Shown here: positions 7,736 to 59,450 of the stretch, piece after piece | Numbering within the stretch: position 1 is the first letter of the stretch | How the letters are laid out: every line of letters starts with the position of its first letter | Virus record (IMG/VR): IMGVR_UViG_3300023174_003073 | Location: 106,987-170,986 of that record | From: a virus | Direction: 5' to 3' (one strand) | DNA: 64,000 bases | Notes under the pieces: model-generated | Seen by the model: only the letters and a program-made list of their open reading frames with translations | What the model was told of the DNA's origin: nothing | The model's database searches: none | Position numbers and translations under genes: made by a program

Positions 7736-8659
7736 TCAACTTGTTAATTCTACTAATGTAGCCGCAAGACTAATCTCAGGGATTCCAACTAGTGATAAGT
7801 TTGCTAGACCATTACGAATGATAATAATACTAGCATCACGTTTTTCTGCACTACTACCCCACAAATCTAAGTTGTTATACATCCAAACATAGATATCTTC
7901 TAAACGACTTGGATACAAACTCAAATGCTGTAGTAATTGCTGACGACCTTCTAAAATCTTTCCGGCTTTAAACAATTCAGTTGCTTCAAACAATAGACCA
8001 TCTTCACTGTTGCTTGCGTCTACAGGTGGCAATAATTTGCCTGTACTACTATTTACTTGAATCTGATTCAAGCATTTACGTAAGTCTGGATATGTAGCAC
8101 TTACATAGCTATCTAATATCTCTAATTCAAAATCAATGTTTTCAGCCACTAGAACAGTTGCGGCACGTGCTGTAAATTCTGTCTTGTCTGTTTTAGTTAT
8201 TCTAAATTCATGGCATCTGCTTTTAAGTGCAGGGATAATTCTATGTTCATAGTTGCAAGTTAGAATAAATCGTGCAGTCATATGATATGCTTCCATATCA
8301 TTACGCAATGCTGCCTGACCTGCTGGTGTTAGATAATCAGCTTCATCTAACAAAACAACTTTAAACTTACCAAAGGGCATTGTTTGTACAAAGCCAATGA
8401 TTTTGTTTCGTACTACATCAACACTATTTTCACGTGACGCATTGATTTCCAATACATCATATTCTTCTACACCTAATTCTTGTATAAGAACTTTTGCAAG
8501 CGTAGTCTTACCTGTACCGGGCTCACCACTCAATAATAGATGCGGAATGCTTTCATTTGCAATCCAACCAGTAACTTGCTCTTTCTGTCTATCGTCAACA
8601 AAGACATAATCATTTACAGAATGAGGTCTGTAAGCCTCTACCCAGAGTTGGTTTTTCAT
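7736..8659 (-). CDS. sliding-clamp loader large subunit (RFC/T4 gp44-like)
   Basis: LWVEAYRP, GEPGTGKT, EINAS, LLDEAD, FILTCN, SRC. Confidence 0.93.
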   Translation of the reverse strand: MKNQLWVEAYRPHSVNDYVFVDDRQKEQVTGWIANESIPHLLLSGEPGTGKTTLAKVLIQELGVEEYDVLEINASRENSVDVVRNKIIGFVQTMPFGKFKVVLLDEADYLTPAGQAALRNDMEAYHMTARFILTCNYEHRIIPALKSRCHEFRITKTDKTEFTARAATVLVAENIDFELEILDSYVSATYPDLRKCLNQIQVNSSTGKLLPPVDASNSEDGLLFEATELFKAGKILEGRQQLLQHLSLYPSRLEDIYVWMYNNLDLWGSSAEKRDASIIIIRNGLANLSLVGIPEISLAATLVELTS

Positions 8660-8988
8660 CGTTTTAGTGCTTCGTAAGTGATAATATGATTAAGTGATTC
8701 GCCCAAGTCTTTATCATGGGGTATAATATGCAATGAGTTTTTCATTCTGTCTGATTTTTCATCATATTGACGCAACTCAACTACATGCCCACCGTTAGCA
8801 GGATATAAATTAAAGCAAGTGCCACGACTTTCTAATTCACCAGATGAATCATGTCTTACTGGATTAAGACGAACATTGTTTTGTCTTTTACTACCAGTAA
8901 TAGCAAGATTGGGACCTTCGTCTGCTTCTTGCGGAATATTGTTTGCCCAGTGAACTTTCTTCATAAACCATTTATCAAACCACTTCAT
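8656..8988 (-). CDS. hypothetical protein
   Basis: 110 aa, ATGA-coupled. Confidence 0.65.
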   Translation of the reverse strand: MKWFDKWFMKKVHWANNIPQEADEGPNLAITGSKRQNNVRLNPVRHDSSGELESRGTCFNLYPANGGHVVELRQYDEKSDRMKNSLHIIPHDKDLGESLNHIITYEALKR

Positions 8989-45502: not shown

Positions 45503-46915
45503 TCAATTTTTGAGATTGTTAAGTAGTGCTTTTAATTTGCTACCCTGCACGTCTGCAACTACCCGTTTAGTTTCTTCAGGAATATAGATATTTTCCCCAA
45601 CCACAGTTGACTGGGGCTTTAATTGATTCATAATCTCGTTAGGACTAGGGGCAGGACGATACTTCATTTGCTGATCTCCATGACCCTCAGGATCCTCGTC
45701 TGTAATTCTCATGGTTTCTACGTTATATTCCAAGTCAATTTTTTGACCTACACCAGTCGAACTACGACTTTTCATACACTGAATCTGATACTTACCGCGT
45801 TCACGCATACTACGACTTGTAAAGATACCAAATACGTTATCTGCTGTATTAATCTTACTGATACCACCTGCAATATGACTATGGTCAAACTCAATTTCTT
45901 CAACTGCACTACGATTCAACTGACTTGCAGTAACCATTAATACACCTAATTCTTTGGATAGGTTACGCAATTCTTCTGACACATACTTGTCTTTAATAAA
46001 CTGGTCGTTAGGATTTACTTTAACAGACACGGGCATTACTAGATCCAGATAGTCAATCATCACAAAGTCAACTTTGATACCTGTTTGTATCTGTACTTCT
46101 TTCAAGTAACTACGAATATCGTTAACATTGCTTTGTGCGGGCAATCCTTTAACACGATAGTCACCTGATTTCTTACCTGCTAATTTAACTTTAAGTTCAG
46201 TATTATCAATATCTTTACGAATGTCTCTGGTACTCATCATAGTCAACATCGCATCAGTTCTAAGTGAAGTCAATTCTTCTGAGAGTTCCAATGAGATATA
46301 AACGCCACTCAATCCCATACCTAACCAATTCAGTGCAATGTTCATCATCACCAATGATTTACCTGAACCTGAACCACCTGCAAAGATATTCAATTCACCT
46401 CGACTAAAGCCACCATACAACAACCTATCAAGTTGCGGCCAGCCTGTGCTTTGTTGTCCACCTGCATTAAAGTATTTGTGCAATCGTCCTTTAGGGTCAG
46501 CAAAGTAATCTGTACCCATATCTCGTTGTAAACTAATCTGCACTGCTTCTTTGATTAGTTTCTCGACGGGACCAAAGTCACCCTTCTCTAACAAATCGGC
46601 TGCTTTGAGGATTGCTCGTTCTAATTCTTGTCTTTTAGTAAATGATTCAAATTCTTCTAAGAACCATTCAGTATGTTTATCACCGAAATCTTCAACCATA
46701 TCAAGTTGAACACCTGTGGTCGCTACAATTTGTTTACTATCGGGTAGTAAACTATACTTCTCACTATATTCTATCATAAACTCTGCAACAGGTCTTAAAG
46801 ACTTGTCAAAGTTCTGAGCATTCATAATATTCATTACCCTTGTATACAATTCTGCATTTGTCAGAATCATTTGTAAAAAGAGTTTTTGAATCTCTACGTT
46901 ATATTCCTTTTGCAA
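45503..46915 (-). CDS. replicative DNA helicase (DnaB/T4 gp41-like)
   Basis: GGSGSGKS, YISLEL, IDYLDL, TASQLNR, TAD, KSR; TTG start. Confidence 0.92.
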   Translation of the reverse strand: MQKEYNVEIQKLFLQMILTNAELYTRVMNIMNAQNFDKSLRPVAEFMIEYSEKYSLLPDSKQIVATTGVQLDMVEDFGDKHTEWFLEEFESFTKRQELERAILKAADLLEKGDFGPVEKLIKEAVQISLQRDMGTDYFADPKGRLHKYFNAGGQQSTGWPQLDRLLYGGFSRGELNIFAGGSGSGKSLVMMNIALNWLGMGLSGVYISLELSEELTSLRTDAMLTMMSTRDIRKDIDNTELKVKLAGKKSGDYRVKGLPAQSNVNDIRSYLKEVQIQTGIKVDFVMIDYLDLVMPVSVKVNPNDQFIKDKYVSEELRNLSKELGVLMVTASQLNRSAVEEIEFDHSHIAGGISKINTADNVFGIFTSRSMRERGKYQIQCMKSRSSTGVGQKIDLEYNVETMRITDEDPEGHGDQQMKYRPAPSPNEIMNQLKPQSTVVGENIYIPEETKRVVADVQGSKLKALLNNLKN

Positions 46916-46916
46916 T

Positions 46917-47417
46917 TCAATTTCCTTTGTTTATTGATGTGTCATATTGACCATCAATCAAAATATATAACATACGACATACATTTGATGACCTATTAGC
47001 CCATGCATGGTTAGTACCTCGTTGTATTACAACTGCCCCTTTTTGTAAATCAACTTCTGAATCATCTAATACTAATGTAATCTCTCCTTCCATCACGATA
47101 CTATAATCAATTGATTCAGTGACATGCATTAAGGGATGTGGTTTTAAAAATCTAAATTCTGTAGTCTCAGGTGGAATATCAGCAAATCTAATTCTTGTAC
47201 CATTTTTTGGAGGTTCAAATTTTAATGGGCTGTTTGTAGGATCAATCCTATTATCAATTATTGCTGGCATTTCTGTAGTATTCCATACTTCGTGTAATAC
47301 AAGACCTGGAATAATATCTAAATCAAAAACATTAGGCAAAGTTCCATTTGAAGTTATTATTGATTTACCCTCATTGTTGTGACCTGTAACCACACGATGA
47401 ATCTTGGGATAAGTCAT
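46917..47417 (-). CDS. cupin-domain protein
   Basis: RVVTGH...GKS; MH.TESIDY.IV.EGEI.L.LD; G.VVIQRGTNHAW.N. Confidence 0.88.
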   Translation of the reverse strand: MTYPKIHRVVTGHNNEGKSIITSNGTLPNVFDLDIIPGLVLHEVWNTTEMPAIIDNRIDPTNSPLKFEPPKNGTRIRFADIPPETTEFRFLKPHPLMHVTESIDYSIVMEGEITLVLDDSEVDLQKGAVVIQRGTNHAWANRSSNVCRMLYILIDGQYDTSINKGN

Positions 47418-48391
47418 TCTATGGCCTTTAATAATTTACGCTTTTGCATTTCTATTTTAATTTTACTCATTGTAGCATTTTCTAATATACTTAGTAAAGT
47501 AGGCAATCTACCATATTTTACCACTGCATCATTCACATCTTTAACTGAGCTATCCCAATCAGGTAAACTAACACTATACCCAAACTCTAATGCTTTGTCA
47601 CATATCTCCAGACCAGTCGCATCACGATCGGGTACAACGATTATTTTCTTATTCAATTGTGCTAGCAATTGTGCTTGTTCTGTTGATATTGTATTATGTG
47701 TTAAAGCACAACCATGAATGCTCAATGCATCAAAAATACCTTCAACTACGATACATGCTTGCCATTCTGGTTTCTGAAAATCATATCCAAATACATATCC
47801 TGCTTCTTGGTCATTGATATACTTAGGAATTCTGTTATCTAAAAATCTGCTCGTATGACCTACAGTTTTTCCCTTATATGTATAGGGGATAACAATTCGA
47901 TTTGATTGTCTGCCCTTATCATTGGGTGTGACTACAAAGGGTAATATTGTTTTATCAATCTTTCTGTTTTGTAGATATTGTAAGAATACACTATGATTAG
48001 GATTATTGCTATCTAACAATTCACCGTCAGGTAATTCTCTTGCTTTAAACGAAATTGTTTCACGAACCTTTTTGGTATATGTAAAATCTAAAAAGTCTTT
48101 GTTGCGTAAACTTTCAAGACTCCAAAGTTGAATCTGTTCTATGTCAACACCACACCACAATAAGAATTGTTTTGCTCTTTCAGAAATAACTCTTCCCAAA
48201 GTAAAACTGCAACTATAGCTACAGTTAAAGCAATGGTATACCCAGTTAGTTTGTCCATCAAACTTAATACCACCTCTGAATCTATCATCAGGCCTATGCC
48301 CACGATGGGAACAACAAATTGCGTTGAAACTAGTCCAACCACCACTTGTTTGTTTCTTACGACCGGGTATTATTGAGAGTATATCAAACAT
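47414..48391 (-). CDS. DNA primase (T4 gp61-like; Zn finger + TOPRIM)
   Basis: C..C and HCFNC Zn ligands; RIVIP, PKY; VEGIFDA, PDRD..G, KDVNDA. Confidence 0.9.
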   Translation of the reverse strand: MFDILSIIPGRKKQTSGGWTSFNAICCSHRGHRPDDRFRGGIKFDGQTNWVYHCFNCSYSCSFTLGRVISERAKQFLLWCGVDIEQIQLWSLESLRNKDFLDFTYTKKVRETISFKARELPDGELLDSNNPNHSVFLQYLQNRKIDKTILPFVVTPNDKGRQSNRIVIPYTYKGKTVGHTSRFLDNRIPKYINDQEAGYVFGYDFQKPEWQACIVVEGIFDALSIHGCALTHNTISTEQAQLLAQLNKKIIVVPDRDATGLEICDKALEFGYSVSLPDWDSSVKDVNDAVVKYGRLPTLLSILENATMSKIKIEMQKRKLLKAIE

Positions 48392-50221: not shown

Positions 50222-50999
50222 TATATTTTGGTATGCAAACGTTTAGTGCTGATTCAAGGCTTTGAATTGGAAAAACAGATTCTAGTTTAACAGTGTTTAA
50301 CACACAATTACTACGCGGTGCAACTACTGCTTTTGCAAATTCTTCTTTAGTAAACCATTCTTTCTTTAAACCAAGTTTATCTGCTAACTCTTTTGTTGTC
50401 GCCGAGCCATGATTGCAAACATTATACAATCCTTTTGGTATTGTCTTATAATTGTTTGCAAACTCAACTGCAACTTTAGCAACATCAGGAACATAACTTA
50501 AACTGTTTTCATAATCAATAAGTTTGTCGTAACGTGCTAACTTACTGAACAAATTCTTGGGGTCATGGTCATCGCTGAATGGCATGCGAATACGCAATAG
50601 ATAACTCTTATTCATATAGGGCTCTAATAGTTTTTGTTCTAGTGCTTTACTACCGCTATAGAAACTACCATTATTAAAGTTGAAGTTAGGTTCATCTAAT
50701 TCAGTGTAATGCTTTTCATACCCGGTATATACACAGCCACTGCTGATATGTACAATGGGACATTTCTCAGTTTGTTCTAAGAACAATGGATACAACACAT
50801 TGCCATCAATTGTTTCTTGTTTGTAAATCTCACACGCATCCACGTTAGGCACACCAGTAAACCCGGTAGCATTAATGATTGCTCGTTTGCCAGGTGGAAC
50901 AGGATCAGTATGTCTAATCCATGTGTGTTCTAAATTTTGTGCTTGTAATTCTTTTTGTATCGCTTTACCGATATATCCATGTCCAATAAGTACTATCAT
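50205..50999 (-). CDS. NDP-4-keto-6-deoxyglucose 3,5-epimerase/4-reductase (NRS/ER-type, RmlD superfamily)
   Basis: G.GYIG, G.TG.PNVD.CE, SSGCVY, GSFYS.SK, LRIRMP, APRSN. Confidence 0.75.
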   Translation of the reverse strand: MIVLIGHGYIGKAIQKELQAQNLEHTWIRHTDPVPPGKRAIINATGFTGVPNVDACEIYKQETIDGNVLYPLFLEQTEKCPIVHISSGCVYTGYEKHYTELDEPNFNFNNGSFYSGSKALEQKLLEPYMNKSYLLRIRMPFSDDHDPKNLFSKLARYDKLIDYENSLSYVPDVAKVAVEFANNYKTIPKGLYNVCNHGSATTKELADKLGLKKEWFTKEEFAKAVVAPRSNCVLNTVKLESVFPIQSLESALNVCIPKYNEVSV

Positions 51000-51484
51000 A
51001 GTTGTCCTTTATATCTTTCTATAATTTCTGGGCTATGCTGAGCCGGTGCATTTGCACTTGTGTCTTTTTGTTTTTCCAATTCATAAACACGCTTACGCAA
51101 TTCACTAGAACTGTAATTGTGTTGTCTCTTATGATAATGCAATTCAATGCTATTGTCAATACAATATTGCTTTCCGGTAAAATCTCTATTGAGATATTCT
51201 TCACTTAGGAAACGAATATTAATAGTTTGGGTCATTAACATTTGTAGTAAATCGTATTCAGTTGAGTATACCAAAATCTCATCAACATACTTACATGCCT
51301 GCAATTGCACATAGCGTTCATATACACTTTGACATGGTTTGTTTTTAACACCCGGTCTATCAATTGTGGGATCAACTTGTAGTGCAACTATTAAATAGTC
51401 GCACAATTCTTTTTCCATCTTTAACATTGTTACATGTCCGGCATGAAACAAATCAAAACTGCTACAATTAAATCCTATTTTCAT
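50996..51484 (-). CDS. cytidylyltransferase (TagD/glycerol-3-phosphate cytidylyltransferase-like)
   Basis: FDLFHAGH, YLIVAL, ER..QL..CKYVDEI, R.H.YSSS.LR. Confidence 0.85.
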   Translation of the reverse strand: MKIGFNCSSFDLFHAGHVTMLKMEKELCDYLIVALQVDPTIDRPGVKNKPCQSVYERYVQLQACKYVDEILVYSTEYDLLQMLMTQTINIRFLSEEYLNRDFTGKQYCIDNSIELHYHKRQHNYSSSELRKRVYELEKQKDTSANAPAQHSPEIIERYKGQL

Positions 51485-52391
51485 TTTTATACCATTCTAT
51501 TGTTTTTTTCAAACCTACACCTAATGAATGTGATACATTCCAATCTGTGTCACGTAATACTAAACTGATATCAGTACTATATCTCATATCATGTCCCGGT
51601 CTATCATTTACGTATGTAATTAAATCAGTACTTGATTCCATCAAATTCAATATTTGTTTAACCAAATCAATGTTTTTGATTTCACAATCGCCACCAATAC
51701 AGTATCTATCTTGCTTGTTGTCTAGCTGAGAAATTTTATAAATTGCATCACATGTATCTTCTACATAAATCCAATCACGAACCTGTAAACCCTGACCATA
51801 CACCGGAATACTTTTATTCTGTAAAATATTAGAGATTGTTTTGGGAATCATCTTTTCAGTGTGTTGATATGGTCCATAGTTATTACTGCTATTAATAATA
51901 ACACCCTTCATACCGTATGTGTTTTTAAACGCGGTTACAAAATGTTCAGCACTTGCCTTACTAGCAGAGTATGGATTATGAGGATCAATTTGTGATTGTT
52001 CATTGAACTTATATGGCTCTGCAACTTCTCCAAATACTTCATCAGTTGAGATATGTATGAACTTAACATTTTTATTACGGAAATAATTCAATAGATTGAT
52101 AGTACCGTGAATGTTTGATTTTACAAAAGGTTGAACATCGTTTATTGAATTGTCTACGTGACTTTCTGCGGCAAAGTGATAAACTTCTGTAAAAGAAAAT
52201 CTATCTAATTCTTTTAAAGAATGTTCGTCTGCAATATCAATAACTGCATAGTTAACTGATAACTTCTTCAATGCTTCTGGATTGCTTGCATAGGTTAATT
52301 TGTCAATGACAAATATATCTTTTTTCTTTTCTAATAAGTATTTGACAAAGTTCAAACCAATGAACCCAGCACCGCCTGTTACTAATATCAT
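51468..52391 (-). CDS. rmlB: dTDP-glucose 4,6-dehydratase
   Basis: VTGGAGFIG, DKLTYA, HFAAESHVDNSI, ISTDEV, PYSASKA, NNYGPYQH.EK, RDWIYVED, DRPGHD.RY. Confidence 0.93.
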   Translation of the reverse strand: MILVTGGAGFIGLNFVKYLLEKKKDIFVIDKLTYASNPEALKKLSVNYAVIDIADEHSLKELDRFSFTEVYHFAAESHVDNSINDVQPFVKSNIHGTINLLNYFRNKNVKFIHISTDEVFGEVAEPYKFNEQSQIDPHNPYSASKASAEHFVTAFKNTYGMKGVIINSSNNYGPYQHTEKMIPKTISNILQNKSIPVYGQGLQVRDWIYVEDTCDAIYKISQLDNKQDRYCIGGDCEIKNIDLVKQILNLMESSTDLITYVNDRPGHDMRYSTDISLVLRDTDWNVSHSLGVGLKKTIEWYKNENRI

Positions 52392-52951
52392 TTTTTACTC
52401 TCCACTAATCCTGCTTTTATTAATTTCATATATGCTTTCTGTACAACAATAGCCTGCCGTTCAGCATCTTCTACTGCCTTGTGACTTGTAACATGTCCAC
52501 CGTCTTTTAGACTTACTCCAGTAATATCAAATAATGTTCGTGTATCTCTTACTGTATAGAAAGCCCAGGGTATTGGATTAGGTCTAGTTGATGTTTGTCT
52601 TAGTGCTGACTCCATGACAACAACGTCAAAAGGTGCACCATGCGACCACACAGCACGACGGTTCCAACAAAACTTATATAGTTTCTCCATACAGTCAGAT
52701 AATGATTCACGTCCAGAATCTCCCATAGCTTCTTCTTGTGCAGCCACACTTTGAGTACTCCACCAACGCAATGTATCTTCATTGATACTACGGTTGTAGA
52801 TTTCAGTTTGATCCTCAATAGTAGGTCGTAGTTCTAATCGTTCTACTACACCAGAGCCTTTAGGATCGAATCGTACAGCACCGATAGTAAGTATAACACA
52901 ATCAGGTGTTGTGTTCAAACTTTCAATGTCAATCATCACATCGTTTGCCAT
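52388..52951 (-). CDS. DEDDh 3'-5' exonuclease
   Basis: MIDIES, IGAV.F, W.HG..FD, RDTRT, H.A.EDA. Confidence 0.85.
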   Translation of the reverse strand: MANDVMIDIESLNTTPDCVILTIGAVRFDPKGSGVVERLELRPTIEDQTEIYNRSINEDTLRWWSTQSVAAQEEAMGDSGRESLSDCMEKLYKFCWNRRAVWSHGAPFDVVVMESALRQTSTRPNPIPWAFYTVRDTRTLFDITGVSLKDGGHVTSHKAVEDAERQAIVVQKAYMKLIKAGLVESKK

Positions 52952-52952
52952 A

Positions 52953-53198
52953 TTATTGCCACCTTAATAGAAACATCATAAAGTCTGATTCTTGTAAAAA
53001 AGTTATACTGTTTGAATCATCAATATTATCAGTCCAACGAACTGCTTCTAACTTTTCATTGTATCCAGGCTTGCCGAATGTTTTCTTACACCACTTCTGC
53101 ATATCTTTGTTGGTGTGTTCAATACTGCGAACCCAACTCACAGTATAGAATGTGGTAGCTGAGCCAGGATAGATATATTTCTTTTGAGTTAGTTCCAT
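52953..53198 (-). CDS. small FxLRW-family protein J
   Basis: KWCKKTFG...ITFLQESDFMMFLLRWQ; TAATG start overlap. Confidence 0.7.
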   Translation of the reverse strand: MELTQKKYIYPGSATTFYTVSWVRSIEHTNKDMQKWCKKTFGKPGYNEKLEAVRWTDNIDDSNSITFLQESDFMMFLLRWQ

Positions 53199-53473
53199 TA
53201 GTTTTTCCACATCTCATACATAAATTTTAACTTATCGTCCCATACCTCAATTATTAATAATTCACTTATCCACATAAAGTCCCAGCCTGAACCACGATGC
53301 CCCATATTTCTACGACACCATTTAATATGTTCATTAGGATAACCTTTGTGATGGCGATAATCAATTTTATAAATGGTCTTACTACCAGACGTAGTTACTT
53401 CACTGCGGTCAAAGTTTGGCGCCTGGATAATAGGTGAAATATAAGTGTATGCGTTTGTTGTGGATATTGCCAT
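53198..53473 (-). CDS. small FxLRW-family protein I (divergent)
   Basis: KWCRRNMG...IEVWDDKLKFMYEMWKN. Confidence 0.65.
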   Translation of the reverse strand: MAISTTNAYTYISPIIQAPNFDRSEVTTSGSKTIYKIDYRHHKGYPNEHIKWCRRNMGHRGSGWDFMWISELLIIEVWDDKLKFMYEMWKN

Positions 53474-53691
53474 TATTGATATTTTAGTGTAAACCAGGTT
53501 GCAAGTGATTCTTTATAGAATTTGAATACAGTGTATCTATTGTACACGTTATCTCCACTCCAGTCATTAAAAACGGGCTTATGATATTCAAAATCAAATT
53601 CAATACCTTGAAGATATCCTTTACTACGCAACTCACGTACTATTTCCATAATCTCGTTGGGTTGTTTATCTATTAAAGTTACAGTTATCAT
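53473..53691 (-). CDS. small FxLRW-family protein H
   Basis: VFKFYKESLATWFTLKYQ. Confidence 0.7.
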   Translation of the reverse strand: MITVTLIDKQPNEIMEIVRELRSKGYLQGIEFDFEYHKPVFNDWSGDNVYNRYTVFKFYKESLATWFTLKYQ

Positions 53692-53909
53692 TGTGGAAAT
53701 TTTATTAAAAAGAAACTAGCATAGCTTTCATTTTCAAATGTAAGAGTCCAATATCTATTAGATACTCCCGGATCCCATTGTTGTTTTGCTAACCAGCCCT
53801 GTCCACCGATACTGTTATGAATATAATGCAATCTAGGCCCAATATTTTTTACTAGCCATCGTTCTTCCCATGCATCTAATCCATTTTTAAGTTTGATAGT
53901 TATAGCCAT
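53688..53909 (-). CDS. small FxLRW-family protein G
   Basis: Start trimmed to MAITIK; RWLVKNIG...LTFENESYASFFLIKF. Confidence 0.7.
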   Translation of the reverse strand: MAITIKLKNGLDAWEERWLVKNIGPRLHYIHNSIGGQGWLAKQQWDPGVSNRYWTLTFENESYASFFLIKFPQ

Positions 53910-53910
53910 C

Positions 53911-54102
53911 TTATTCCCAGCGCATCCTAAACCAAAATGCATCTTTGTTGTCACCAAAATGATAATCCGCTTCTGACCTACCCTCATCTTCAACGTCCCA
54001 ATGCCAAGTTTCACTAAGATAACTCTTACAATGTTCTCTAGCCCACTGTGCTGGAGTTTCTTTATTATGGGATCTAAGTGGTAGTGTTATAGTATGTCTC
54101 AT
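53911..54102 (-). CDS. small FxLRW-family protein F
   Basis: QWAREHC...YHFGDNKDAFWFRMRWE; ATGA overlap. Confidence 0.7.
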   Translation of the reverse strand: MRHTITLPLRSHNKETPAQWAREHCKSYLSETWHWDVEDEGRSEADYHFGDNKDAFWFRMRWE

Positions 54103-54338
54103 TGCCACCTCAACACAAATAAAATATACTCTTGTTCACACAAGAACTTGAATCTAAATGCATCACCTTCTCCGCCTTCTACAAAGATCCGCGGATGCTT
54201 GCGTTCTTCACGCAACCAGTGACTTGCTTTAAAATAAGTTTGATAATCAGGTACAGTAGCATAAATCCATTTGTTGCGCCTACATTGAGGCTTGTGACGG
54301 CAAAAGTCTTCCTGTGTTAGCGTGGTAGTTTCCGTCAT
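54099..54338 (-). CDS. small FxLRW-family protein E
   Basis: HWLREE...FKFLCEQEYILFVLRWQ; ATGA overlap. Confidence 0.7.
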   Translation of the reverse strand: MTETTTLTQEDFCRHKPQCRRNKWIYATVPDYQTYFKASHWLREERKHPRIFVEGGEGDAFRFKFLCEQEYILFVLRWQ

Positions 54339-54640
54339 TGCCACCTCAGCAAAAACCATTCACAATCTGGTTTGTCTCTAAACCAAAACTTAGCATTGTT
54401 TGCATACCATCTATCTCCGGGAGTCCATACTCCAGGAGCGCCGGGTGTGCCGCTTGGTCCAAATATGTTAACACACCAAGCAGTCATTTTGTTCCATTCA
54501 TTCGGTGATACTATGGGGTCAATCTGATGATAGGGCATGTCGTAGGCATATCCTATGCCTACATAGTTAACACTACGGTATGCGGCCCAGCCACCGTTAG
54601 CTCCGTATAACTTATTAGTCATTTGCTTTTTCTTAATCAT
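54335..54640 (-). CDS. small FxLRW-family protein D
   Basis: AWCVNIFG...FWFRDKPDCEWFLLRWQ; ATGA overlap. Confidence 0.7.
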   Translation of the reverse strand: MIKKKQMTNKLYGANGGWAAYRSVNYVGIGYAYDMPYHQIDPIVSPNEWNKMTAWCVNIFGPSGTPGAPGVWTPGDRWYANNAKFWFRDKPDCEWFLLRWQ

Positions 54641-54942
54641 AGCCACCTCAGGCTAAACCATTCAGCCTCTTTTTTAGACTTGAATATAAATGTTTTTCCT
54701 CTGGATAAAAAACCTCTTTTACAATTTTTTGTTACCCAATCTCTAAGTTCAATTGATTTTTCTATACTTCCTAATGTTAGTAACTCAACAGTGTACCAAC
54801 CTGAATCAATCAATAAGTCTTTCATAATATCAAAGTCCATTTGCTCAGATAATTCTCTAGCTTTGTCCTCAGCTATTTGTTCTTCTAATTTAAGTCTGTT
54901 ATATGCACTTGCCGCATTAGCCGCATCGTATATATGTTTCAT
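54637..54942 (-). CDS. small FxLRW-family protein C
   Basis: DWVTKNC...FIFKSKKEAEWFSLRWL. Confidence 0.7.
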   Translation of the reverse strand: MKHIYDAANAASAYNRLKLEEQIAEDKARELSEQMDFDIMKDLLIDSGWYTVELLTLGSIEKSIELRDWVTKNCKRGFLSRGKTFIFKSKKEAEWFSLRWL

Positions 54943-55091
54943 TTCTTTTTATTAACAATGTCAGGTGTAATGGCATCAATCGTATTAACTGTAGTCTTTA
55001 TTGCATAAACTGCGGTAGTACCGGCAGCATCAGCGATAGCAAGTACAGTACAACCTTGCAAACATAAAATGATTGGTAAAAATATTTTCAT
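54939..55091 (-). CDS. small lipoprotein, 50 aa (MKIFLPIILCLQGCTVLAIADAAG...PDIVNKKK)
   Basis: Read manually; type II signal peptide with lipobox LQGC; ATGA overlaps at both ends. Confidence 0.75.
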   Translation of the reverse strand: MKIFLPIILCLQGCTVLAIADAAGTTAVYAIKTTVNTIDAITPDIVNKKK

Positions 55092-55345
55092 AGATATTTT
55101 AAAACAAAGAATAGATATTTCTTTTCGTCAACAACTTCATAGGTTTCAGTTAGGTGGCCCTCATTAGAATAAATGATTCTAATTCCAAATGTTTGTAACA
55201 TCCATTGATTAAACAATAAGCTAGAATCTTTCCTATCAAATTCAGCTTTCAATTTTCGTACAGCCGCCCAATACTTCCATCTTCTAGCTTTTCGGTCACG
55301 ATCCCATTCTTCAAAAGATTCATCTGCCGGATTGAAACCTCTCAT
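55088..55345 (-). CDS. small FxLRW-family protein B (divergent)
   Basis: QWMLQTFG...YEVVDEKKYLFFVLKYL. Confidence 0.65.
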   Translation of the reverse strand: MRGFNPADESFEEWDRDRKARRWKYWAAVRKLKAEFDRKDSSLLFNQWMLQTFGIRIIYSNEGHLTETYEVVDEKKYLFFVLKYL

Positions 55346-55986
55346 CGTTGCATTAGTTCGTTTGCAAAATTTAATAGAAGTTTGTGATGTTTACCGTCAT
55401 GGTAATGTGCTTTCATCCAGCTATAACTTTCATACCAGAATGGTTGACTTTCTGGGTGGCACCCAATCAATCCTAATCTGTTCTGAAATATAGCCATTGC
55501 GTCTCCATTACTATAAGTAGCAACTGTCTCAAACTTTGTGTCATCGCCCACTAACGCACATCCATCATACCAGAACATTTTCATTGGTTCGCCTCTCCAA
55601 GTGATAGGCATGTTCTTTGCATGTGGTCTTCGTGTGTCAGTTCCAGGACGTTTGAGATATTGTACAGCATCTACGCCGTCAAGTAAAGAGAAATAGTGTG
55701 AACCTGCCCAGTATGCGCCCATGCATATGCCCAGATATCTTCCACCGTTGTTAACAAAATCAATTACACGTTTTCCATTGTGTTGAAATAGTTTCTCGTA
55801 GCTATCGCTATCTCCAAACCCACCGGGAACAGCTATCATATCAACTCCTTTAAAGAAGTCTTTTTCTAATGCATTCTTGGAAAATAGTTTGAAGTTGTAC
55901 TGAGAATCCAAAGAACTGATTATTCCGTTGGAACTCTGTACTGAGCATTTTGGGTCTGCTACGAAAAGTGCGATTGTTGGTTTCAT
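55342..55986 (-). CDS. class I glutamine amidotransferase-like (BPL_N-type) protein
   Basis: VPGG, YLGICMGAY nucleophile elbow, HPE. Confidence 0.8.
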   Translation of the reverse strand: MKPTIALFVADPKCSVQSSNGIISSLDSQYNFKLFSKNALEKDFFKGVDMIAVPGGFGDSDSYEKLFQHNGKRVIDFVNNGGRYLGICMGAYWAGSHYFSLLDGVDAVQYLKRPGTDTRRPHAKNMPITWRGEPMKMFWYDGCALVGDDTKFETVATYSNGDAMAIFQNRLGLIGCHPESQPFWYESYSWMKAHYHDGKHHKLLLNFANELMQR

Positions 55987-56020
55987 TAGTATAATATTTA
56001 GTCAGTGAAATATTACACTA

Positions 56021-56257
56021 TTATAACCACCTCAAGCTAAAATGTATAGCGTCTTTCTCGTCTTGGAAATAAAAATCCATATATTCTTCGGTAGGATGAG
56101 TACTATATTTGTCTCCTGGCAACCCAAACTGTTCCATTGCCCATATGCAGGTTTCATCCCATCGGGTTATAGAATCACCCTTCTTCCAAGGTATACGTAC
56201 TTTAGTAGCCTGCAATACGAAGGGTGTCTCTGATTTGTTGTTTAAGGTCTGGTTCAC
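56021..56257 (-). CDS. small FxLRW-family protein A
   Basis: IWAMEQFG...FYFQDEKDAIHFSLRWL; exact start uncertain. Confidence 0.65.
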   Translation of the reverse strand: MNQTLNNKSETPFVLQATKVRIPWKKGDSITRWDETCIWAMEQFGLPGDKYSTHPTEEYMDFYFQDEKDAIHFSLRWL

Positions 56258-56906
56258 GATGAAATTTTAATGCCCATTGTTCTGGATTTATATAATCGAT
56301 TACGATTTTCACATGTTCTGGATTTAATGTTTCCAGAAATTTAGTTCCACTATCACTACAATATAGCATCCAAGGACTAATTTTCCCAGTAGTGATATTC
56401 AAACAAATTCTATTCACATTTCCGTATCGTAGGATATCATGAGGTTGAATTTTATCTGTCTCTGCTAGATTGATACAAGTCTCAACACTACGATGTATTG
56501 CATCAAATGGATCTTCATGTCGTAGATATTCTATCAAAAATTTAGTATAGGTAACATCGCTATTCCAACTATCAATTTTAATATTGTTCTTTAATAACCA
56601 ATCAACATATCTACCGACATTAATAACGTTAACTTCTGCACAATAATTACCAAACTTTACAAATGCAATGTAATATGCATTCTTAATGAATTCTTCATAT
56701 GTTTTATTTTTGGTCTTACTCATGCTATTCTTAGCATAGAATTGTAACCAAGACTGAAAGCCCAATCTATTGCCTAGATGGTCACGATTTTGCCAACGCT
56801 GTTTCTGTTCACAGATATGGCTAAACAATGTTCGCTCTCTTACAAACTCTCGTTTGCAAAATTCGCAACTATGTTTAATTTCAACCGTTTCCGTGGTCTT
56901 TTTCAT
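56202..56906 (-). CDS. hypothetical protein with N-terminal Zn finger
   Basis: CEFCKREF......SHIC. Confidence 0.65.
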   Translation of the reverse strand: MKKTTETVEIKHSCEFCKREFVRERTLFSHICEQKQRWQNRDHLGNRLGFQSWLQFYAKNSMSKTKNKTYEEFIKNAYYIAFVKFGNYCAEVNVINVGRYVDWLLKNNIKIDSWNSDVTYTKFLIEYLRHEDPFDAIHRSVETCINLAETDKIQPHDILRYGNVNRICLNITTGKISPWMLYCSDSGTKFLETLNPEHVKIVIDYINPEQWALKFHREPDLKQQIRDTLRIAGY

Positions 56907-57978: not shown

Positions 57979-58007
57979 AGTGTAACACAATTTTACTTGT
58001 ATGTCAA
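57979..58007 (-). promoter_or_regulatory. sigma70-type promoter TTGACA-17-TACACT (extended -10), 7 nt before ATG 57971
   Basis: Read directly. Confidence 0.7.
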
Positions 58008-59450
58008 CTTCTCCATATCAAAAGGGTAATTTGCTTCTTTATAGAAGGTCTTGCGTTGCGTCAAATGTCTTTTGGCAAATTTGCAGGAGCTTGTGAGGTC
58101 CCAGATTTGCACGAAATCTTTGTCATCCGCTTTTCTAATACCCCGGCCAATGCTCTGGATAACCCTAACAAAACTCTTGCCAGGTTCAATAAGAACAAGG
58201 TTGAATATTCGTGGTATGTTGATACCAACCGCTGCCACGCCGTAGGTCGCAACGATAATTTTGTTTGTACTGGTCGCAATTTCATCGTATTCCTCTTTTC
58301 TTTCAGTCATGTTTGTTTCACCCGAAACAAACACTGCGTCGGGTAATCTGCTAATCAATTCTTTGCCGGCATTTACTCTATCTACTAATACTAGTGTATT
58401 CCCCGATTCCTTGATATTTAGTATCAATTGAGCCATAGTATCTAATCTTTTTGTATCTTCCAGCAAGTGTTTTAATTCACTTTGATAGTTAGTAAACTCT
58501 ACATCATCTTTCAACTGTACAATGTTTACATGACATTGTGCCAATACACCTTTTTCTTGTAATTCACTTGCGCTAAGTTTGTTAGTTAGATTACCGATAC
58601 TCACATACAATGCTTGTGCTTCAAAGATTGCTTTAGGTATCGTTCCAGTCAAGCCCCAACGAATTGGAATATGACTCATTACTCCGGTCAATAGTTCTTT
58701 CAACACCTCAGCCTTAGCCATGTGAACCTCGTCAACCATGACACATACAACACCTTCAATGAACTCACCAATTGATACTTCGGCTTCATCTGCTTTTGTT
58801 TTCTTAAGCATATTGCCTAAACTTTGCCAAGTACAGATAGTATGTGTCTTACCATATTCTTTTCTGTCACCAAAGTATACACCAACATCTAATCCTAGAT
58901 TAATATAGTCTGCTTCTGTTTGTACAACAAGACTTTTATTAGGGACGATAACAATACTGCGACCGTAATTTTCTATGCTGTAACTTAGTGCGGCAGTCAT
59001 TAACGTTTTACCTGCGCCCGTTGCTACCTCTTGTATTGATTGAGGATTAGATAAAAATTCATTCACTACAGTTAACTGATAGTCACGAAACATTACAGGT
59101 TCTCCTGCTTTAGGATGACCTTTCGGCCATGTATGATGACTGAATGTATCTTCCTTAATTTCAGTGAAATTGAATGTAGTGCTATACTCACGCAAATCCT
59201 GCAATTCGATATCGTATCCTGCATTATCAATCAATGGTAAGATTTCCGGTAACAGATTGACATAGCTACTACCGCCTAGACTGAAGAAACTGATTTTACC
59301 ATTCCAACGACCTAGCCGGACACTTGGTAGATATCTTGCACCAGGCTTTTCGTATTCAAATTTCTTCATCAATGCTTTTCTTTCGGCAAGTTCTAAGCCT
59401 TCAATTTTAACATTGACCTCGTCTTTAATAATTAATTTACATTGTTTCAT
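57993..59450 (-). CDS. uvsW: SF2 DNA helicase (UvsW-like)
   Basis: RDYQ, ATGAGKT, DEVH, GLTGT, GINIP, QSIGRG.R. Confidence 0.9.
   Translation of the reverse strand: MKQCKLIIKDEVNVKIEGLELAERKALMKKFEYEKPGARYLPSVRLGRWNGKISFFSLGGSSYVNLLPEILPLIDNAGYDIELQDLREYSTTFNFTEIKEDTFSHHTWPKGHPKAGEPVMFRDYQLTVVNEFLSNPQSIQEVATGAGKTLMTAALSYSIENYGRSIVIVPNKSLVVQTEADYINLGLDVGVYFGDRKEYGKTHTICTWQSLGNMLKKTKADEAEVSIGEFIEGVVCVMVDEVHMAKAEVLKELLTGVMSHIPIRWGLTGTIPKAIFEAQALYVSIGNLTNKLSASELQEKGVLAQCHVNIVQLKDDVEFTNYQSELKHLLEDTKRLDTMAQLILNIKESGNTLVLVDRVNAGKELISRLPDAVFVSGETNMTERKEEYDEIATSTNKIIVATYGVAAVGINIPRIFNLVLIEPGKSFVRVIQSIGRGIRKADDKDFVQIWDLTSSCKFAKRHLTQRKTFYKEANYPFDMEKLTYK

Follow-up and report, generated by a model that had tools for sequence, protein, structure and literature searches.

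Lineage-specific tandem expansions of one small domain have been described for large phages. Bacillus phage G carries approximately 35 zinc-ribbon copies (Iyer et al. 2021, PMC7824862), and arrays of the phage G/121Q type have been described as very similar copies originating from recent duplication (PMC5646251, PMC7824862). A different arrangement is represented by the hyperplastic promoter-early stem-loop (PeSL) regions of T4-type phages, in which a variable block of small open reading frames (ORFs) lies between conserved replication genes (PMC4122927). Here, we describe an array of ten small paralogous genes at positions 52953-56257 of a stretch of viral DNA from IMG/VR record IMGVR_UViG_3300023174_003073. 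The analyzed stretch, hereafter called the window, comprises 64,000 nt (positions 106,987-170,986) and represents the terminal 64 kb of the 170,986-bp record; coordinates are window positions unless marked as genome positions. Like the phage G/121Q-type arrays (PMC5646251, PMC7824862), the locus represents a small domain that has expanded in tandem within one lineage of large phages and whose function can at most be guessed. Unlike those arrays, its copies share only 17-31% pairwise identity, and every one of them has conserved orthologues of its own. Thus, the copies date from old duplications and have all been maintained. With the PeSL regions (PMC4122927), the locus shares the position of a variable small-ORF block between conserved replication genes and the gain, loss, and exchange of whole units among closely related phages. 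In contrast to PeSL cassettes, however, the array lacks an intergenic promoter and stem-loop, its units are coupled through ATGA or TAATG overlaps, and its ORFs are paralogues of one family instead of unrelated ORFans. We consider a standing panel of small intracellular binders the likeliest role of the array and hold this reading with moderate confidence; binding, intracellular location, and timing of expression are inferred.

The ten ORFs (63-101 aa) are located on the minus strand and belong to one family. Read from the sequence, all ten and their C-terminal endings are as given in the initial annotation of this DNA. In the following list, E values refer to the external profile described below, and dN/dS denotes the ratio of nonsynonymous to synonymous substitution rates between orthologues.

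56021-56257, minus strand: copy 1, 78 aa from GTG 56257, ending FSLRWL; E 1.9e-21; dN/dS 0.07-0.28; the best-conserved member across relatives.
55088-55345, minus strand: copy 2, 85 aa, ending FVLKYL; E 1e-7; orthologue 94% identical, dN/dS 0.07.
54637-54942, minus strand: copy 3, 101 aa, extended at the N-terminus by a long helical stretch, ending FSLRWL; E 5e-11; dN/dS 0.24-0.56.
54335-54640, minus strand: copy 4, 101 aa from ATG 54640, ending FLLRWQ; E 5e-18; dN/dS 0.05-0.16; carries the long conserved loop PGVWTP..RWYANNAKFWF.
54099-54338, minus strand: copy 5, 79 aa from ATG 54338, ending FVLRWQ; E 1.8e-6; no orthologue in the closest relative.
53911-54102, minus strand: copy 6, 63 aa from ATG 54102, ending FRMRWE; E 1.2e-11; orthologue seen in contig L012 only.
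53688-53909, minus strand: copy 7, 73 aa, ending FLIKFPQ; E 7e-6; dN/dS 0.15-0.52.
53473-53691, minus strand: copy 8, 72 aa, ending FTLKYQ, without the G of the central motif; E 8e-5; orthologue 99% identical, dN/dS 0.04.
53198-53473, minus strand: copy 9, 91 aa, ending YEMWKN; E 9e-6 (leave-one-out E 0.21); the copy that deviates most, marked by an invariant signature of its own, KWCRRNxGxRGxGWDF.
52953-53198, minus strand: copy 10, 81 aa from ATG 53198, ending FLLRWQ; E 4e-17; dN/dS 0.07-0.13.

For the starts at 53198, 54102, 54338, and 54640, the ATG inside the overlap is probably the correct choice and likelier than the start of the longest ORF. Copy 1 has two candidate starts. With GTG 56257, its first 56 nt (56202-56257) lie on the end of the upstream gene; an in-frame TTG at 56215 would shrink the overlap to 14 nt and the product to 64 aa, and gene callers report a 64-65-aa form in many relatives.

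Of the 1,091 six-frame ORFs of at least 35 aa that the complete 170,986-bp record contains, only 10 have a C-terminal ending of the form [FYW]-x-[LIM]-[RK]-[WYF]-x(0-2); nine belong to the array, and the tenth runs antisense to an array member. Leave-one-out hidden Markov models (HMMs) searched against all genome ORFs recovered nine of the ten copies with E<=0.003, and copy 9 was marginal (E=0.21). An external HMM built from 150 metagenomic representatives recovered 11 of 11 copies, i.e., the ten of the array and a dispersed one, with E values from 2e-21 to 8e-5; the next genome ORF scored E=1.1. The eleventh copy (genome 44163-44363, minus strand) lies 116 kb from the array on the same record and adjoins a dCMP deaminase gene and a MazG-like gene. 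The genome-wide profile count proposed in the initial annotation therefore gives 11 copies, ten of them in the array. Of the central W-x5-G motif that had been called usual for the family, the W occurs in every copy, but only 7 of the 11 copies have the G. The isoelectric points range from 5.2 to 9.2 without a common charge character, and a family of DNA mimics or otherwise uniformly charged proteins was rejected on this basis. Secreted or membrane proteins were likewise rejected, as none of the ten copies has a hydrophobic N-terminus. Neither signal peptides nor enzyme motifs were found in the copies.

An exhaustive profile search of 1.84 billion representatives retrieved 543 homologues at the 50% identity level with E<=1e-3. 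The best 150 of these 543 were all 54-143 aa long, and the match nearly always reached the C-terminus. The family consensus reads WCxExFG...RW...FxFxDExDAxxFxLRW, and the signature, which carries no accession, can be written as W-x5-G ... F-x-F-x2-E-x-D-A-x2-F-x-L-[RK]-[WY]. The homologues are named only "hypothetical protein" and lack a family-wide Pfam domain. Searches of Pfam-A, PHROGs v4, NCBIfam 20, PADLOC 2.0, and the PDB sequences with the window copies and/or 61 homologues gave nothing at the curated cut-off; the best PDB profile match, 4dwe_A (E=0.11), was treated as chance. Matches in BFVD and the ESM Atlas comprised only uncharacterized proteins, mostly from tailed phages. In a tblastn search, copy 1 had no match among 50,697 phage records, and a literature search found no description of the family. 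No fused form longer than 252 aa was found, which is weak evidence. The family is real, confined to phages, and common in uncultured phages. The suspicion that it is undescribed was borne out, and the HMM did not lead to any characterized family.

Each paralogue has orthologues in related IMG/VR contigs, which are 55-99% identical, compared with 17-31% between paralogues. Nei-Gojobori dN/dS values between orthologues range from 0.04 to 0.56 and are mostly below 0.35. The order of the units is collinear with that in the closest relative, and identities of the units shared by this pair extend from 55% to 99%. Judged from these comparisons, the ORFs are real coding genes that arose by old duplications, with each copy under purifying selection. 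Thus, the array is an old, maintained repertoire and not a fast-diversifying one. The initial annotation had called the family diversifying, and at the level of whole genes the identities and dN/dS values do not support this.

The set of units is nevertheless variable between phages. Copies 5 and 6 are missing from the closest relative, which carries one unrelated unit in their place. The same slot holds 2-14 copies in 29 relatives that are each represented by at least 12 kb, and in five larger records all family matches fall into a single array. A jumbo-like contig of a different lineage carries 12-13 copies, and a contig of only 2 kb carries five. Two near-identical, collinear ENA contigs of a different lineage (L086 and L087, 8175-12127) differ by whole units in a 12-13-copy array. 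This difference provides direct evidence that units have recently been gained or lost.

The array is interrupted by two unrelated genes, one similar to glutamine amidotransferases (GATases) and BPL_N proteins and the other a 50-aa lipoprotein-like ORF. Its junctions, as read from the sequence, comprise seven ATGA overlaps, two TAATG overlaps, two 1-nt gaps, and one 34-nt gap, so that 11 of 12 lack intergenic space. No minus-strand terminator was detected inside the array, and promoter-like sites showed no excess there. The array is a tightly coupled, co-directional unit with translational coupling, in agreement with what the overlaps had already suggested in the initial annotation. The region 55987-56048 (minus strand) holds the sole real intergenic gap (34 nt) and also the best sigma-70-like match of the region (TATACA-17-TATAAT, 10/12). 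The part of the array downstream of this gap may have its own promoter of unassigned class.

The coupling raises the question of whether the C-terminal motif is a protein feature at all. The L-R-W residues are often encoded by TTG-AGG-TGG followed by CA-ATG-A, where the stop codon overlaps the next start codon. The GAGGTGG within these codons then provides the next gene with its Shine-Dalgarno sequence. GAGGTGG or AAGGTGG stands 2-8 nt before the next ATG at four junctions of the array; behind copy 10, AAGGTGG is located 8 nt ahead of the exonuclease ATG. Among 203 distinct family junctions, the ratio of AGG-TGG to AGA-TGG was 88:41 where an ATG followed within 7-16 nt and 9:18 where it did not (Fisher p=0.001, relatedness not corrected for). 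The four junctions and the AGG-TGG excess would fit an explanation in which the motif is a by-product of a constraint on the DNA, acting as Shine-Dalgarno sequence or, in the form AGA-TGG, as start of the next gene, or in which the ORFs are not real genes. Copy 1, however, keeps the motif despite the 34-nt gap, and all 34 uncoupled motif-bearing junctions retain the R/K and the aromatic residue. Exchanges of R to K and of W to Y or F preserve the protein character but destroy the Shine-Dalgarno sequence. Furthermore, conservation spans the whole 60-residue domain, and dN/dS is below 1 in every copy. This explanation is largely refuted, and we regard it as extremely improbable. As the motif is kept without a following gene and through changes that abolish the Shine-Dalgarno sequence, coupling biases the choice of codons but does not create the protein motif.

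Structures were predicted for two of the 11 copies, the best-conserved copy 1 and the most aberrant copy 9, which are approximately 21% identical. The AlphaFold2 model of copy 1, calculated with the 11 paralogues as alignment, had a mean predicted local distance difference test (pLDDT) score of 80, with approximately 90 in the core, and consists of a strand (residues 18-23), a helix (30-44), two strands (51-55 and 59-64), and a final helix (67-77). Copy 9, modeled with 13 of its own orthologues, adopted a β-β-α-β-β-α arrangement with block-mean pLDDT values of 81-92 over core residues 31-80 and, again, approximately 90 in the core. Both models contain the same β-α-β-β-α core, to which copy 9 adds one preceding strand. 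The prediction of an expanded family on one small α/β scaffold thus holds for two strongly diverged copies, whose predicted structures share a fold.

In the models, helix 1 contains the invariant Trp together with the F-G, strand 3 contains F-x-F, and D-A-x2-F-x-L-R-W forms the last helix. The spacing of the conserved residues, together with the variability of those in between, suggests that the motif represents the hydrophobic core and the helix caps. The C-terminal segment had originally been interpreted as a constant docking helix. In both models, however, the last helix is integral to the fold, and its A/F/L/W residues as well as F-x-F occupy presumed core positions. The parts that distinguish the paralogues are instead the surface of helix 1 and the loop connecting it to strand 2. 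This loop varies in length and sequence between paralogues, and both parts are conserved within orthologue groups. Polar signatures of individual groups (KWCRRNxGxRGxGWDF, YIHNSIGGQGW, PGVWTP..RWYANNAKFWF, and FGLPG....TH.TEEYMDF) map to helix 1 and the following loop.

The fold recalls several known sandwiches, i.e., ACT (β-α-β-β-α-β), DCoH/pterin-4a-carbinolamine dehydratase (β-β-α-β-β-α), and RRM domains. Their scores against the array family were within the background of small folds, no sequence relationship to any of them was found, and the predicted fold appears to lack the fourth strand of ACT and RRM domains. The paralogues could be nucleic-acid-binding regulators of transcription, translation, or RNA, each recognizing a different site through a sheet similar to that of RRM, the MotA C-terminal domain, or the N-terminal domain of the RNA polymerase alpha subunit. 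With an acidic helix cap behind it, the F-x-F superficially resembles RNP1 and helix 2, and the array is situated within a replication module. No Pfam RRM match was obtained, however, and RNP motifs appear to be absent. A variable residue alternates with the Phe residues of F-x-F, which most likely makes the latter face the core, unlike the open-sheet face of RNP1. As half of the copies are also acidic or neutral within the pI range of 5.2-9.2, we regard nucleic acid binding as unlikely. Phage sponge proteins directed against defense signals are known, and different copies might accordingly be ACT-like binders or sponges for different small molecules such as signaling nucleotides or metabolites. 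The apparent lack of the fourth ACT strand and of the ACT ligand site, the lack of any polar pocket conserved throughout the family, and the missing sequence relationship make this unlikely.

A conserved scaffold with paralogue-specific, conserved surfaces, the lack of a common charge, signal, or enzyme motif, the coupling, and the swapping of units are together best explained by a panel of binders. According to this model, the small soluble proteins of this old, phage-only multigene family, with their compact two-layer β-α-β-β-α fold, would be intracellular. Each paralogue would recognize a different host or phage macromolecule via its own helix-1 face and loop. The ten genes are translated as a coupled unit amid replication and nucleotide-metabolism genes, with UvsW on one side and the exonuclease, primase, and helicase genes on the other, and would be expressed together with these. 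Units are gained, lost, and swapped between related phages, and the proteins might act in host takeover, counter-defense, or phage-phage competition. A narrower version, to which we assign a low probability, is a modular counter-defense or host-takeover repertoire, in which each paralogue neutralizes a different host protein or defense system through the variable loop between helix 1 and strand 2 and units are exchanged as cassettes. If true, the array would be a phage counterpart of bacterial polyimmunity loci.

Several observations weigh against the panel of binders. The analysis revealed neither a target nor a partner gene nor a homologue of known function. Buried and exposed positions were deduced from the spacing of residues in strands and helices, and the timing of expression from an analogy with T4 gene blocks. 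A CTAAATA motif resembling late promoters, 10 nt ahead of the ATG of the GATase-like gene, makes late expression possible. Finally, dN/dS values below 1 over entire genes speak against a current arms race.

Large phages spend much of their genome on small unnamed genes. The present family fills approximately 3 kb of this record, and many uncultured freshwater phages carry it as arrays of 2-14 copies. The profile, the fold model, and the orthologue groups turn this unnamed sequence into a testable set of proteins that are tiny, soluble-looking, and individually conserved. If the copies bind distinct host targets, they would offer a small natural scaffold for binders, from which new inhibitors of bacterial proteins could be obtained. 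If they are not binders, the domain is still common and deserves a database entry.

The gene content of the window places the array among genes that fit a T4-like phage, and its neighbors are replication and nucleotide genes. The flanking and interrupting genes are as follows.

57993-59450: UvsW-type helicase, on the upstream side of the array.
56202-56906, minus strand: upstream anchor gene preceding copy 1, 234 aa, phrog_11058, function unknown.
55342-55986, minus strand: interrupting gene, class-I glutamine-amidotransferase/BPL_N-like protein of 214 aa (PF09825, 8e-11; PF00117, 5e-5).
54939-55091, minus strand: interrupting 50-aa ORF, read from the sequence, with the lipoprotein-type N-terminus MKIFLPIILCLQGC and an LQGC lipobox.
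52388-52951, minus strand: downstream anchor, Rv2179c-like 3'-5' exonuclease, which flanks the array in relatives too.
50996-52391: nucleotide-sugar epimerase and cytidylyltransferase, downstream of the array.
47414-48391: Toprim primase, downstream of the array.
45503-46915: DnaB-like helicase, downstream of the array.

The initial annotation had the array leading into exonuclease, sugar, and DnaE genes. The exonuclease and the sugar-nucleotide enzymes are indeed present, but no DnaE was seen among the genes downstream of the array, which encode a Toprim primase and a DnaB-like helicase instead. The translation of the GATase-like gene contains a G-I-C-M-G elbow and an H-P-E motif. In the relative L002, a PhyH-like dioxygenase (8219-8932) is located in its place, indicating that this position swaps auxiliary enzymes. 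The same relative carries a 206-aa gene in place of the upstream anchor gene. ATGA overlaps couple the 50-aa ORF to both of its neighbors, and the array of the closest relative lacks this ORF, which may encode a small superinfection-exclusion or envelope lipoprotein. For the related 174,470-bp record IMGVR_UViG_3300027749_000040, CheckV estimated a completeness of only 50%. Thus, the 171-kb record with the array may likewise represent only part of a larger genome, and genomes of this phage group may be near 350 kb in size.

Outside the window, contigs of 330-360 kb encode a sister subfamily of 104-130 aa (P0209, P0210, P0207, P0251, P0036; L085:1183-2787). Its members consist of the array-family domain and an N-terminal copy of the most conserved segment of the gp23 major head protein (L.AQ.IVGVQPM..P.G.IF). 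This N-terminal extension, which lies outside the array-family domain, accounts for the sole recurrent library match, PF07068 (Gp23). In an alignment, P0209 (residues 9-58) and gp23 of Aeromonas phage Aeh1 (residues 107-156) are 46% identical, and tblastn with P0209, a jumbo-phage homologue, matched only real gp23 genes, via the N-terminal segment. A role of the family in the capsid or in head assembly would be consistent with this alignment, with the segment (VQPMxxPxGxxF) standing ahead of the same domain, and with the PF07068 matches of many 105-130-aa homologues. None of the 11 copies of the present genome, however, contains a gp23-like segment, and the array resides among replication genes, not head genes, which makes such a role very unlikely. 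The gp23 segment presumably overlaps the Gol peptide of T4, the activator of the Lit abortive-infection protease. If so, the gp23-fused forms could be decoys for capsid-sensing defenses.

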